A stretch of 32,000 bases of DNA, taken from contig NZ_LN831024.1 of the NCBI RefSeq assembly GCF_001457615.1, forward strand, positions 6,030,001 through 6,062,000. Reading direction: 5' to 3'. Shown piece after piece: positions 7,068 to 24,110 of the stretch. The notes under the pieces are model-generated. The model was not told the DNA's origin. It did no database searches and was given only the letters and a program-made list of their open reading frames with translations. Each line of letters starts with the position of its first letter. Within the stretch, counting starts at the first letter, position 1. The DNA is from Pseudomonas aeruginosa (GTDB lineage Bacteria > Pseudomonadota > Gammaproteobacteria > Pseudomonadales > Pseudomonadaceae). Position numbers and translations under genes: made by a program.

Positions 7068-7255
7068 GGGTGAAGACCATGGCGCAGCCGCGGCCCGCCT
7101 CACTGCGGGCTTCGCACCGCGGCCGTTCGTCGCCTTGCCTCGTTGTCGCTGCCCGCCGCATGGTCTAGGGTAGCGATTCAAGGTCGCCAACGGCCTTGCA
7201 TGACTGCGCCCAACCGCTGCGGATGGGCATGTTAACCGTTCGAATGGAGCCCGTC

Positions 7256-10240: not shown

Positions 10241-11449
10241 ATGCAGCGGCTCTATCGGAAACGCATCGTCCTCGGCGTGGGCGGCGGCATTGCCGCCTAC
10301 AAGAGCGCCGAACTGGTCCGCCGCCTGCGCGACCAGGGCGCTGAAGTCCGAGTGGTGATGACCCAGGGCGGCCGCGAGTTCATCACGCCCCTGACCCTCC
10401 AGGCGTTGTCCGGCCATCCGGTGCATACCGATCTGCTGGACCCGGCGGCGGAAGCCGCGATGGGCCACATCGAACTGGCCCGCTGGGCCGATCTGGTGCT
10501 GATCGCACCGGCTACCGCCGACCTCATGGCGCGCCTGGTCCAGGGCGTGGCCAACGACCTGCTGACCACCCTGGTGCTGGCCACCGACGCGCAAATCGCC
10601 CTGGCACCGGCGATGAACCAGGCCATGTGGCGCGACACCGCGACCCAGGCCAACGCCGAGCTGCTGCGCCAGCGCGGCTTCCACCTGTTCGGTCCGGCAG
10701 CGGGCAGCCAGGCCTGCGGCGACGTCGGCCTCGGACGCATGCTCGAAGCCGAGGAACTGGCGCAGCGCGCCGCCGACTGCTTCCAGCGCCAGGCGCTGAC
10801 CGGCGTGCATGTGCTGATCACCGCCGGCCCGACCCAGGAAAACATCGACCCGGTGCGCTACATCACCAACCACAGTTCCGGAAAGATGGGCTTCGCCCTC
10901 GCCGAGGCGGCGGTGGAAGCCGGCGCACGGGTGACCCTGGTCACCGGCCCGGTGCACCTGCCCACGCCCGACCGGGTGCAGCGCGTCGACGTGGTCAGCG
11001 CCCGCGACATGCTGGCCGCCTGCGAGGCGGCGATGCCCTGCGACCTGCTGATCGCCTCCGCAGCGGTCGCCGACTACCGCCCGGAAGTGGTCGCCGCGCA
11101 CAAACTGAAGAAAGACCCTACCAGCGGCGAGGGCTTGCTCTTGCAGCTGGTGCGCAATCCCGACATTCTCGCCACCCTCGCACAGCGCGAGGATCGTCCC
11201 TTCAGCGTGGGCTTCGCCGCAGAAACCGAAAACCTGCTGGACTATGCTGCACGCAAGCTGAAGGACAAGAACCTCGACCTGATCGTCGCCAACGACGTGG
11301 CCAACCCCTCGATCGGCTTCAACAGCGACGAGAACGCGATCACGGTGATCGACCGCGACCTGCATCCGAGCACCTTCGCCCAGACCAGCAAGGGCAAGAT
11401 CGCTCGCCAGCTGGTCGCCTTCATCGCCGACCGCCTCAACCAGCAATGA
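10241..11449 (+). CDS. coaBC: Bifunctional phosphopantothenoylcysteine decarboxylase / phosphopantothenate-cysteine ligase
   Basis: 402-aa ORF. It has an N-terminal flavoprotein domain ([10 protein letters not shown]) and a C-terminal CoaB domain ([25 protein letters not shown]). Confidence 0.95.
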
Positions 11450-11456
11450 GTTACTG

Positions 11457-11912
11457 ATGCACTCTCTCCAAGCCAAGATCCTCGACCCCCGCCTGGGCTC
11501 CGACTTCCCGCTCCCGCAGTACGCCACGCCGGGCTCGGCCGGCCTGGACCTGCGCGCCATGCTCAAGGAAGACAGCGTCCTCGGCCCGGGCCAGACCCTG
11601 CTGATTCCCACCGGCCTGTCCATCTACATCGCCGATCCCGGCCTCGCCGCCCTGGTCCTGCCGCGCTCCGGCCTGGGGCACAAGCACGGCATCGTGCTGG
11701 GCAACCTGGTCGGCCTGATCGACTCGGACTACCAGGGCGAGCTGATGGTGTCGTGCTGGAACCGCGGCGAGTCGCCGTTCACCATCGCCGTCGGCGAGCG
11801 CATCGCGCAGTTGGTACTGGTGCCGGTGGTGCAGGCGCATTTCGAGCTGGTCGAAGCGTTCGACGAAAGCCAGCGCGGCGCCGGCGGCTTCGGCCATTCC
11901 GGCAGCCACTGA
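11457..11912 (+). CDS. dut: dUTP diphosphatase
   Basis: 151-aa ORF with conserved dUTPase motifs ([41 protein letters not shown]). Confidence 0.97.
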
Positions 11913-12822
11913 CCCCGAACACAGGACGAGACGCCGAGGAGACGCGGCATGAAGCTTTTCCAGCGCACCGCCAAGGATGGGAACGAGTTGGGCGACCTGC
12001 TCGAACCGGAAAAGAAGCCGCGCAAGGCAGCGTCCGAACGCGCTGACGGCAAGGACCTGCTGCCCGGCATAGGCGCCAGCCTACTGGGCGTGGCGGCCGC
12101 CGGCGCCCTGCTCTGGTTCGGCGTCTTCGGCGGCGCCGGTGAGGCGCAGCAGCGCCAGTTGGACGCGGCCTGGGCCGAAGGCCAGGCCGGCGCCTTGCGC
12201 CAGGCCTTGCAGCAACTCGCCGCCGACACCCGCGCCGCCGCGGCCAGCCCCTCGCCCTCGAAGCCCTGCAAAGCGGCGACGCCACCCGCATCGAGGCCGC
12301 CCAGCGCAGCCTGCTGGCCTGGGACGGCGTGGTCGATGCCCACCTGAACGCGCCCGGCCAGGCCGCCCAGGACAACGACAGCCCCGGCCCGGTCAGCTTC
12401 GCCGCCCTGGATATCCTGCACCGGGTGGAAAGTGGCCAGAACGTCGCCGCCGAAGCCTACAAGGTCGGCCAGCGCTGGCTGCTGTACAGCGCCGCGCCGG
12501 TGCGCGGCGCCGACCAGAGCCTGCAAGGCACGCTGCTGCTGGCGGTCGACCTGCAACGGCTGCTGCGCGCCCTGCCGCCCTTGCCGGGCGATGCCGGCCA
12601 GGTACAACTGGTCCAGCAGTTCTCCGGCGCACCGGCCCAGGTGCTGCTGCAACGCGGTACGCCGGCGCCGGGCAAGGGTGCGCAAGCGCTGGACAGCGGC
12701 AATCCGAACTGGAAACTGAACTACACGCCCGGCAGCGTCGCTTCGACCCAGGCCTCGCCGCTGCTGCTGGCACTCGCGGCGCTGCTGGCGCTGCTCGGCG
12801 GCATCCTCGGCACCTACCTCAC

Positions 12823-12831
12823 CCGTTCGTC
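12823..12831 (+). promoter_or_regulatory. AlgR-binding core CCGTTCGTC (algC ABS1-like)
   Basis: Exact match to the AlgR recognition core as I recall it from algD and algC studies. Its spacing to the next two cores (256 and 484 bp) agrees with the published algC layout as I remember it (about -94, +161, +389). Confidence 0.7.
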
Positions 12832-13078
12832 GCTGTTGCGCCGCCTGCATCAGGATGTCCTGACCCTCGGTCAGTATCTTCAGGAACTCGGCGGGCAACG
12901 CACTGCCAAACCCCCTGTGCCTAGCCTGCCGGGCTTCGCCCCGCTGATCCAGGCATTGGCCCGCCAGCCGCGGCGCAAGCCGGAGCCGACCAGCGTGCCC
13001 AGCCCTGCCAAGGCAGCGCCGGTGGCGCCGGTGGCGGTGGCGAAAGCGCCTCCTCGCGAGGAGCCGGCATTGGCAGAT

Positions 13079-13087
13079 CCGTTGTTC
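13079..13087 (+). promoter_or_regulatory. AlgR-binding core variant CCGTTGTTC (algC ABS2-like)
   Basis: One-mismatch variant of the core, 256 bp downstream of the first site and in the algC leader 76 nt before the ATG at 13163. Confidence 0.65.
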
Positions 13088-13162
13088 CAGAACACCGACA
13101 TTCTGGATATCGACATTCTCGATGAAGACCAGGACCTCCTGGGATTGGAGCAAACCCCCATC

Positions 13163-15476
<2,314 letters not shown>

Positions 15477-16815: not shown

Positions 16816-17766
16816 ATGAACCCGATCCGCCCCCACAGGCCCCTGCGCCTGGCCGCCTGCGTCACCCTCGCCGTCAGCTGCTGCACCCACGCCAGCGAAG
16901 GCGGCGTGGACAACATTGGTCCAGGAACCGACGGTTTCTTCACCCTGCCACTGGACGTCGACAACCTCCCCGACCACATGTTCGCCTTCAACGTCTACTA
17001 CAACCACTACGAAGCCAGGAAGCTGAACATCAGCTCCTTCGGCGGCAAGGTGTCCGACGTGAAGATCAGCTCGGATGCGATCATCCCTCGCCTGGACTAC
17101 CTGAGCCCGCTGCGGATCTTCGGCGGGCGCCTGGGCGGCTACATCGCCCAGCCCTATCTCCGCCAACGGGTGGCCGCGTTCGGCCTGAGCGACGAACGGG
17201 AAAGCATGGGCGACACCACCTTCGCGCCGATCATCCTCTGGGACATGGGCAAGGACCTGACCCTGGCCGCCGCCGTGGAGGTCACCGTGCCCACCGGCAA
17301 GTACGATGCCGAGCGGCTGGCCAACACCAGCAACAACTTCTACACCTACAAGCCGCTGTTCTCCTTCACCTGGCTGCCCACCGAACGCACCGAGCTGTCG
17401 CTGAAGGCCACCTACAGCTTCAACATGGAAAACCACGACACCGACTATCGCTCGGGGCAGATCTTCCATTTCGACTATTCCGCCAGCTACCGGGTGACCG
17501 ACAACCTGCGCCTCGGCCTGAACGGCTACTACCTCAAGCAGACCACCGACGACAAACAGAACGGCGAGACCGTACGGGTGTTCGGTTTCGGCGAGGAAGT
17601 CGACGACGGCGTACGCGGCCAGGTCTTCGCCATCGGCCCGGCCGTGCACCTGACCTTCCTCAAGTACGCCAGCGCGGAGATCCGCTGGGCCAAGGAATTC
17701 GACGTGGAGAACCGCCCCGAGGGCGACATGCTCTGGGCCAAGCTGACCATTCCGTTCGAACTCTGA
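16816..17766 (+). CDS. sphA: Outer-membrane beta-barrel channel, MetA-pathway/phenol-degradation-like family (SphA)
   Basis: 316-aa ORF. It has a signal peptide (LRLAACVTLAVSCCTHA) and alternating beta-strand pattern, and ends in a C-terminal Phe-containing strand (LTIPFEL). The symbol comes from recalled PA5325 synteny. Confidence 0.85.
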   Translation: MNPIRPHRPLRLAACVTLAVSCCTHASEGGVDNIGPGTDGFFTLPLDVDNLPDHMFAFNVYYNHYEARKLNISSFGGKVSDVKISSDAIIPRLDYLSPLRIFGGRLGGYIAQPYLRQRVAAFGLSDERESMGDTTFAPIILWDMGKDLTLAAAVEVTVPTGKYDAERLANTSNNFYTYKPLFSFTWLPTERTELSLKATYSFNMENHDTDYRSGQIFHFDYSASYRVTDNLRLGLNGYYLKQTTDDKQNGETVRVFGFGEEVDDGVRGQVFAIGPAVHLTFLKYASAEIRWAKEFDVENRPEGDMLWAKLTIPFEL

Positions 17767-23738: not shown

Positions 23739-24110
23739 CTACTTGATCAGCCGCAGGCAGAACGGATAGCGATAGGCCTTGCCTTCGTTGGCCTTGATGC
23801 CGGCGATGATGGTCAACACCAGCGCCGCCAGGCAGACCAGGCCGAGCAGGAAGAAGCCGATCACCACCAGCATCAGCAGGAAGCTGACGAACATCGCCAG
23901 CGCCACGGTGATCTGGAAGTTCAGCGCTTCCTTGCCCTGGGCGTCGACGAACGGATCGCTCTCGCGCTTGAGTTGCCAGACGATCAGCGGCCCGAGCAGG
24001 CTGCCGAAGGGAAACACCAGGCCGATGAACGCCGCGAAATGGCAGAACATCGCCCATTGCCGGGCTTCCTGGCCGGGGGTCGCGGCGACCTCTTCGGATA
24101 CATCGTTCAT
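23739..24110 (-). CDS. Small membrane protein, DUF4870-like
   Basis: 123-aa ORF. GAAGGAG RBS is upstream. It has three to four hydrophobic helices, and the motif WQLKRESDPFVDAQGKEALNFQIT is typical of DUF4870. Confidence 0.8.
   Translation of the reverse strand: MNDVSEEVAATPGQEARQWAMFCHFAAFIGLVFPFGSLLGPLIVWQLKRESDPFVDAQGKEALNFQITVALAMFVSFLLMLVVIGFFLLGLVCLAALVLTIIAGIKANEGKAYRYPFCLRLIK

Follow-up and report, generated by a model that had tools for sequence, protein, structure and literature searches.

The window analysed here, 32,000 nucleotides (nt) of Pseudomonas aeruginosa (contig NZ_LN831024.1, positions 6,030,001 to 6,062,000), contains coaBC, dut, algC and argB one after another, all on the plus strand in the list of open reading frames (ORFs), with argB ending at 15476. 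The classical product of algC is a soluble phosphomannomutase/phosphoglucomutase (PMM/PGM) of 463 amino acids (aa), whose ATG lies at 13163; dut, which carries the Pfam label dUTPase in matching P. aeruginosa loci, has a stop codon ending at 11912. The subject of this report is the 1.2 kb between them, which on direct reading opens with another ATG, at 11949, after a gap of 36 nt. Very probably these 1.2 kb form the 5' half of a "long" algC, a single gene with two products. The neighbourhood coaBC-dut-algC-argB that characterizes long AlgC is present here (ORF list; Pfam labels in matching loci), as are two transmembrane (TM) helices around a domain of about 200 aa, a Pro-rich linker and the catalytic domains PGM_PMM_I to IV. 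A single frame through all of them is absent from the window as written and appears when one C is added. The features are as follows, residue numbers being those of the protein in this repaired frame; pLDDT is the predicted local distance difference test score.

10241-11449, plus strand: coaBC (ORF list)
11457-11912, plus strand: dut (dUTPase, 151 aa), the gene upstream of long algC (ORF list)
11936-11951, plus strand: Shine-Dalgarno (SD) sequence GAGGAGA (11936-11942), 6-nt spacer and ATG 11949, start of long AlgC (sequence)
11949-12056, plus strand: basic N-terminal tail, aa 1-36, predicted cytoplasmic (translation) and, with pLDDT below 55, predicted disordered
12057-12137, plus strand: TM helix 1 (TM1), aa ~37-63 (Kyte-Doolittle windows above 1.5; AlphaFold helix 34-60)
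12138-12751, plus strand: predicted periplasmic dCache-like domain, aa 64-268 of the repaired protein (AlphaFold, Foldseek)
12248-12251, plus strand: frame break, a run of 4 C against 5 C in intact alleles (translation, homologue comparison)
12752-12823, plus strand: TM helix 2 (TM2), aa 269-292 (Kyte-Doolittle windows above 1.5; AlphaFold helix 271-315)
12823-12831, plus strand: AlgR-binding site algC-ABS1, CCGTTCGTC (pattern search; sequence and -94 position in PMC4064291)
12824-13072, plus strand: juxtamembrane helix, short helix (aa 328-338) and Pro/Ala-rich disordered linker, together aa 293-375, as predicted by AlphaFold
12893-12917, plus strand: internal algC promoter, with the published start at about 12917 and GG-N10-GC (12893-12906) at -24/-12 (AlgR offsets, sequence)
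13073-13162, plus strand: acidic motif ADPLFQNTDILDIDILDEDQDLLGLEQTPI, aa 376-405 (conservation, dN/dS, AlphaFold)
13079-13087, plus strand: AlgR-binding site algC-ABS2, CCGTTGTTC, overlapping the P-L-F codons of the acidic motif (pattern search)
13142-13165, plus strand: embedded SD sequence GGA TTG GAG (GGAG at 13147-13150) and ATG 13163 (Met406), start of the 463-aa AlgC (sequence)
13163-14554, plus strand: PMM/PGM catalytic domains PGM_PMM_I-IV, the classical soluble AlgC (ORF list, Pfam, AlphaFold)
13307-13315, plus strand: AlgR-binding site algC-ABS3, CCGTGCGTC, within the coding sequence of the catalytic domains (pattern search)

The long membrane-anchored AlgC is already known. Qian, Fei and Galperin described it in 2019 as an "overlooked membrane-bound AlgC" (bioRxiv 10.1101/589796; Environ Microbiol 21:3969) in which a periplasmic dCache domain of about 200 aa between two TM segments is joined by a Pro-rich linker to the PMM domain, and they found conserved coaBC-dut-algC(-argB) clusters in eight or more gammaproteobacterial orders (bioRxiv 10.1101/589796). 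The 868-aa ORF of strains PAO1 and PA14 had been missed, since a 463-aa fragment, cloned in 1991, passed for the whole protein (bioRxiv 10.1101/589796). The same authors reported RNA-seq reads over the 5' part of the gene in PAO1 and PA14 and a full-length protein of about 100 kDa in Lysobacter (Le2152 of L. enzymogenes) by Western blot, and they suggested at least two transcription starts (bioRxiv 10.1101/589796). A search of the later literature turned up two citations of this paper and no study that takes the P. aeruginosa long AlgC further. The initial annotation of the window, which had offered a membrane-tethered AlgC as new biology, was thus anticipated by this publication; its remark that automated annotation calls a longer AlgC was accurate, since NCBI and UniRef list the 868-aa product under the name phosphomannomutase/phosphoglucomutase. 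Our locus shares the architecture and gene neighbourhood of the long AlgC of Qian et al., and its repaired product is the very protein that they discuss, whereas the window itself has a one-base frame break in the module. Their study contains neither a mapping of the AlgR boxes and the transcription start onto the ORF nor a link between the internal ATG and an embedded SD sequence. What is added here is the placement of the AlgR sites and of the start at 12917, the co-occurrence of the internal ATG with the embedded SD sequence, and the constraint on the acidic motif.

The architecture proposed in the initial annotation (a basic N-terminus, TM1, a segment of about 200 aa, TM2, a Pro/Ala-rich linker and an acidic tail) was borne out. 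Direct reading gives the same ATG behind GAGGAGA, 36 nt after dut; both TM helices (hydropathy, AlphaFold) and the acidic tail lie within a few bases of where they had been put; and the codon usage described as rich in G+C at third positions (GC3) measures 0.88 and 0.84 in the two halves of the extension, against 0.93 in dut and 0.90 in algC. The N-terminal tail (aa 1-36) is rich in K and R and would lie inside by the positive-inside rule, and this rule, the hydropathy profile and the predicted model together show a topology in which the segment between the TM helices is predicted to be periplasmic. AlphaFold predicts that the helix of TM2 runs on into the cytoplasm to about aa 315. The Pro/Ala-rich stretch between TM2 and the acidic motif (aa 293-375) has the lowest amino-acid identity within the extension, with a median of 0.40, and aa 343-402 have a pLDDT below 50 in the full-length AlphaFold model, in which the catalytic domains reach 94-98. 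Downstream of the Pro/Ala stretch, DPLFQNTDILDIDILDEDQDLLGLEQTPI leads without a stop to MSTAKAPTL at 13163, and the continuity of the acidic tail DILDIDILDEDQDLL into that ATG, as first noted, is likewise seen on direct reading. The Pfam families PF02878, PF02879, PF02880 and PF00408 are found on the cluster representative P0030 and on homologues. The statement that the extension is in frame with algC holds for intact alleles and fails for the window, where the frame switches at a run of C; the initial annotation had mentioned only a repair of the frame.

A 959-aa antisense ORF (11729-14608, minus strand) spans dut and the whole of algC; we take it for a shadow ORF of G+C-rich coding DNA and not for a gene. 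Since such an ORF covers the same region of G+C-rich DNA, an open frame alone is little proof of coding, and the case for the extension has to rest on its conservation, on its ratio of nonsynonymous to synonymous substitution rates (dN/dS) and on its predicted fold. One genome per species was scanned and the 80 best loci were fetched. A relative of the extension was present in 328 species-level genomes; the 405 aa are 48-60% identical over their full length to those of other Pseudomonas species, and many relatives continue into PGM_PMM_I. The conserved N-terminus and the catalytic GSHNP stand in one ORF of at least 700 aa in 74 of the 80 best loci. The sequence MK(L/R)F(K/Q)RTAK at the N-terminus is conserved, and in 71 of 74 Pseudomonas loci an SD-like site precedes the long start. 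When 1.84 billion representative proteins were searched with a profile, 404 clusters (50% identity) matched the module, which is N-terminal in every one of them, with full-length matches of 820-900 aa. All eight scanned matches of at least 700 aa possess PGM_PMM domains, seven of them all four and one (702 aa) only I and II.

In the comparison with P. paraeruginosa, which is 94% identical, the extension has a dN/dS of 0.185 and the enzyme one of 0.035. For 2406 pairs of species the median is 0.39 in the extension, 0.19 in the enzyme and 0.07 in the acidic motif; codon bias inflates these values, but they are informative in their ranking. No part of the extension is more constrained than the acidic motif, which has a median identity of 0.87 and a dN/dS below that of the enzyme, and whose codons vary synonymously among species. 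Amino-acid conservation and dN/dS, which the initial annotation had named as a check, came out at 48-60% identity and at 0.185 against P. paraeruginosa, and on these comparisons the extension is established as coding sequence. The classical view, in which the 1.2 kb is non-coding promoter or leader DNA of algC, can point to the promoter, the three AlgR sites and the 246-nt leader that are located here, and to the UniProt curators, who cut the N-terminal part as "erroneous initiation" (bioRxiv 10.1101/589796). It is nevertheless already refuted by the conservation pattern and keeps practically no probability: amino acids are conserved alongside synonymous variation, GC3 is 0.84-0.88, the predicted fold is confident, and ABS1 and ABS2 are nearly confined to P. 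aeruginosa while the protein is conserved genus-wide.

The promoter of the short form can be placed on this coding sequence. The published positions of the AlgR boxes relative to the algC +1 are -94, +163 and +391 (PMC4064291), and the three boxes located in the window at these offsets all give +1 = 12917. This agreement puts the mapped algC promoter inside the long ORF, just after TM2, and a transcript starting at 12917 can encode only the soluble part. The GG-N10-GC element at -24/-12 has a sigma-54-like spacing as read off the sequence, and a scan for sigma-70 promoters found none. Expression of algC in P. aeruginosa is RpoN-dependent. In PMC4064291, RpoN dependence of algC is given for P. 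syringae only. ABS1 was confined to the window sequence, and ABS2 recurred in three of the other species only; the protein under the AlgR boxes is conserved, with synonymous variation among species in the DPLFQ codons. Judging from this distribution, the AlgR boxes overlying the coding sequence are recent. Three more exact copies of CCGTTCGTC, the high-affinity AlgR box, lie elsewhere in the window (7123-7131; 17191-17199, minus strand; 23946-23954, minus strand), and a relaxed AlgR pattern has 8 matches in the window against 3.4 expected by chance, a count of 8 being reached in 1 of 100 shuffles.

The start codon of the short form shows a pattern of its own. Of 75 long genes, 54 have an ATG at the Met406 column, and 51 of these 54 encode G399-L400-E401 as GGA-TTG-GAG, which forms the SD-like site GGAttGGAG. 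The other 21 use GGC-CTC-GAY, with an SD-like site in only one. GGA and TTG are rare codons in the G+C-rich genomes of Pseudomonas. This codon evidence suggests selection on the internal start; the 21 genes that lack the ATG, being largely from one clade (the group of P. peli, P. guineae and P. anguilliseptica), represent few independent events. In that clade there is no Met between the motif and the catalytic domain, and presumably only the long enzyme is made, which argues that the long protein is a working enzyme. The soluble 463-aa AlgC of P. aeruginosa, the form on which biochemical and structural work was done, is encoded at 13163-14554 from the AlgR-dependent promoter inside the extension and is identical to aa 406-868 of the long product; it differs in being cytosolic and in lacking the 405-aa membrane/sensor part. 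This short enzyme and its promoter have been demonstrated in the literature. A further in-frame codon, TTG at 13070, lies downstream of the 12917 start behind GAGGAG (13057-13062) with a 7-nt spacer, the R-E-E codons of the GAGGAG site falling in the poorly conserved linker. If used, this TTG would yield a soluble AlgC that retains the acidic motif.

With an AlgR promoter and an embedded ribosome-binding site (RBS) and ATG 13163 inside the long ORF, the locus is best read as one gene with two products. We propose that, in intact alleles, translation from ATG 11949 would give the 868-aa protein, consisting in order of the basic tail, TM1, the dCache-like domain, TM2 and its helix, the linker, the acidic motif and the PMM/PGM domains; the AlgR-activated start near 12917, together with the embedded RBS and ATG 13163, gives the soluble 463-aa AlgC. 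The long form is probably made in P. aeruginosa from dut read-through transcripts; no terminator-like site was found on the plus strand between dut and 11949, and terminator-like sites occur only on the minus strand. It would reside in the inner membrane, with the enzyme on the cytoplasmic side.

An alternative is separate synthesis of the extension and of AlgC, as two proteins with no fusion. In P. lalucatii (L087, 3660-3680) an extension of 392 aa and an algC product of 464 aa are encoded by separate ORFs with an ATGA stop/start overlap; a run of C lies just upstream, the split is seen in a single genome, and it may be a sequence error. In our window, the shifted frame of ATG 11949 also ends at the TGA of the ATGA at 13163-13166, overlapping the algC ATG, so that any -1 frameshift late in the extension stops right at the start of short algC. 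Frameshifted alleles do end exactly at this ATGA, among them P0001, a 405-aa database product from a cluster of 87 sequences. Such an overlap is typical of translational coupling. Separate synthesis is still highly improbable: one continuous ORF is found in 74 of the 80 species-level loci, every full-length database match is a fusion, the P. lalucatii split adjoins a C-run in that one genome, and a full-length fusion has already been detected for Lysobacter Le2152 (bioRxiv 10.1101/589796).

For the periplasmic part, an AlphaFold2 model of aa 1-332, built on an alignment of 92 sequences, has a mean pLDDT of 89, rising to about 97 between the TM helices. The model consists of a long helix (63-98), two short helices, an alpha/beta module (strands 128-201, with a helix at 151-161), a mostly beta module (217-261) and TM2; the predicted structure therefore contains the elements of a dCache fold, a long helix and two tandem alpha/beta (PAS-like) modules between TM helices. 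In a Foldseek search against the Protein Data Bank (PDB), the first match is the sensor domain of KinD (4JGP; E 9e-7; TM-score 0.67 normalised to KinD), followed by Mlp37, DctB (3E4O), PctA/B/C, PcrK and LuxQ, all of them dCache or PDC sensors. The solved structure nearest in fold is the pyruvate-binding dCache domain of Bacillus subtilis KinD (4JGP/4JGO), with about 215 aligned columns; it differs from long AlgC in sequence (12-13% identity) and in its output, a histidine kinase and not a sugar-phosphate mutase. Members of the dCache superfamily bind small molecules, as a rule in the module farther from the membrane. Mlp37, Mlp24, PctA/B/C, DctB (3E4O), PcrK and LuxQ share the fold class and the placement between two TM helices. 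The matches from Mlp37 to LuxQ are weaker (E 1e-4 to 2e-3), and these proteins signal through dimeric HAMP, kinase or methyl-accepting chemotaxis protein modules, unlike long AlgC, whose output is an enzyme reported to be monomeric (bioRxiv 10.1101/589796). The top HHpred matches of Qian et al. were KinD 4JGP and DctB, and a new dCache family was suggested (bioRxiv 10.1101/589796). Few periplasmic residues are at least 90% conserved across 91-92 sequences, namely E169, G194, G217, Q223, G237 and W255.

Several findings weigh against reading the locus as the source of a sensor-bearing long AlgC. The frame of ATG 11949 in the window stops at TGA 12345-12347, giving 132 aa, and P. aeruginosa records often contain an N-terminal product that is truncated or frameshifted. 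By dN/dS, evolution is faster in the extension than in the enzyme. No protein-level evidence of the long form in P. aeruginosa was found in the searchable literature. Pfam gave nothing at threshold on the extension, the only hit being dCache_3 over aa 68-117 (E 0.36; 10.8 bits against a cut-off of 25.7), and NCBIfam gave no match; no N-terminal family was found at E up to 0.01 in 10 homologues, and a profile search of PDB sequences returned chance-level matches only. The dCache assignment is founded on predicted structure here and on HHpred in Qian et al. The suggestion of a PDC/Cache-type sensor domain in the initial annotation accordingly holds at the level of predicted structure, with the KinD dCache as the closest fold, and not at that of curated sequence families. 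Furthermore, PMM/PGM enzymes act as monomers (bioRxiv 10.1101/589796), so the usual dimer-based dCache signalling is not simply transferable to them, and in the full-length AlphaFold model, where both folded halves are confident, neither the module nor the acidic motif contacts the enzyme.

The break itself lies in a homopolymer. The window reads CCCC at 12248-12251, whereas intact P. aeruginosa homologues have AAASPLALEAL, which requires CCCCC, the length of the run in most P. aeruginosa. The algC frame differs from that of ATG 11949 and is open from about 12140, forming an ORF of 741 aa. With the long ORF interrupted in this manner, the window as written cannot make the long isoform. Adding one C generates the 868-aa protein, which is found exactly on at least 1000 public contigs and in a cluster of 3056 members; the window's own products are also found exactly in public contigs, the 132-aa product on 88 and the 741-aa product on 30. 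A programmed frameshift was considered and is unlikely, because the intact allele simply has one C more. Six loci with the identical 132-aa product (L001-L006) differ from the window by 0.4-1.0%; four of them come from assemblies with fragmented neighbours, and two are otherwise clean. Occurring on backgrounds this far apart, the break is recurrent, which homopolymer error and slippage both fit; the 4-C run marks a site at which one or the other recurs.

We put the chance that the break is a homopolymer sequencing or assembly error, the strain having an intact 868-aa gene, at about even. It is a one-base difference within a C5 run, its appearance on several backgrounds is what a recurrent artefact would give, and four of the six loci sharing the product sit in assemblies with broken essential neighbours (coaBC of 367-368 aa against 402 aa, algC in pieces). 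P. aeruginosa 39016, which we take to have been sequenced with 454 chemistry, is among the carriers of the 132-aa product. On the other side, the neighbours are intact in the window, L003 and L006, the exact 132-aa product occurs on 88 contigs of several origins, Logan assemblies of public runs among them, and real slippage is equally consistent with recurrence across backgrounds. If the 4-C sequence is correct, the strain can make only a 132-aa stub and the short soluble AlgC.

The broken frame and the many truncated N-terminal products in the database also bear on the idea that the extension is a decaying remnant in P. aeruginosa, where only the short AlgC would matter, and is about to be lost as it already has been in P. 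putida and P. fluorescens. The biochemistry and genetics of AlgC have all been done on the 463-aa form (bioRxiv 10.1101/589796), and the promoter, AlgR boxes and RBS of that form lie inside the long ORF. We consider it unlikely all the same: the intact allele is by far the commonest, with at least 1000 contigs of one exact sequence and a 3056-member cluster, dN/dS between P. aeruginosa and P. paraeruginosa is 0.185, the start codon and its strong SD sequence are kept, and the 5' part is covered by RNA-seq in PAO1 and PA14 (bioRxiv 10.1101/589796).

What the extension does for the enzyme is a matter of weaker probabilities. The periplasmic domain may bind a small ligand and thereby alter the activity of the tethered enzyme or its access to partners, as Qian et al. 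propose, and we give this a chance slightly short of even. The acidic motif is undocked in the full-length AlphaFold model, with a pLDDT of 33-45, and related motifs (PLFQ...LDIDxxD...DLLG) are present in many distant long PMMs; a segment that is constrained yet predicted to be disordered may be a short linear motif that binds a partner or serves autoinhibition. It is conceivable, though less so than ligand sensing, that the module is a membrane tether or scaffold at an envelope-polysaccharide or pilus machinery, with the acidic motif docking a partner, and no ligand sensor. The most constrained element of the extension is indeed this cytoplasmic motif and not the periplasmic domain, its predicted disorder and undocked state resemble those of a short linear binding motif, invariant residues are scarce in the periplasmic domain across the family, and monomeric PMMs fit dimer-based signalling badly (bioRxiv 10.1101/589796). 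A well-folded dCache-like domain retained over many gammaproteobacterial orders, however, exceeds the needs of a tether, and the many characterised proteins that share this fold, as matched by Foldseek, use it as a ligand-binding domain.

Returning to one gene with two products, a more elaborate and rather doubtful version can be drawn, in which the strong upstream start would supply a ligand-responsive membrane PMM/PGM, the AlgR promoter and the rare-codon RBS would supply free enzyme in the P. aeruginosa lineage, the acidic motif would autoinhibit or dock, and slippage at the C5 run would recurrently silence the membrane isoform only. AlgC provides sugar phosphates for alginate, Psl, the lipopolysaccharide (LPS) core and rhamnolipids, and a signal-responsive membrane AlgC, if true, would be a post-translational control point in a biofilm and virulence pathway of P. 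aeruginosa. The control-point idea was already published in 2019, so the finding opens no new ground; the interest left lies in the biology of the P. aeruginosa long form and not in its discovery.

A mutant of PAO1, PAER10b, carries a nonsense mutation in algC, A to T at AE004091 position 5,992,863 (PMC10714927). It has a truncated LPS core and is phage resistant, and it was complemented by a 2607-bp algC clone, which corresponds to the long ORF (PMC10714927). The plasmid coordinates in PMC10714927 suggest that the mutation lies in the catalytic domain. By the coordinates presumed for PA5322, the altered base would be the second of its codon, where this change is incompatible with a stop, and no conclusion is drawn from the mutant. 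Rfam and tRNA scans of the whole window returned no matches. For residue numbering, the classical Met1 of AlgC is Met406 of the long product (868 minus 463, plus 1), whereas Qian et al. place the start of the cloned short protein at Met392.

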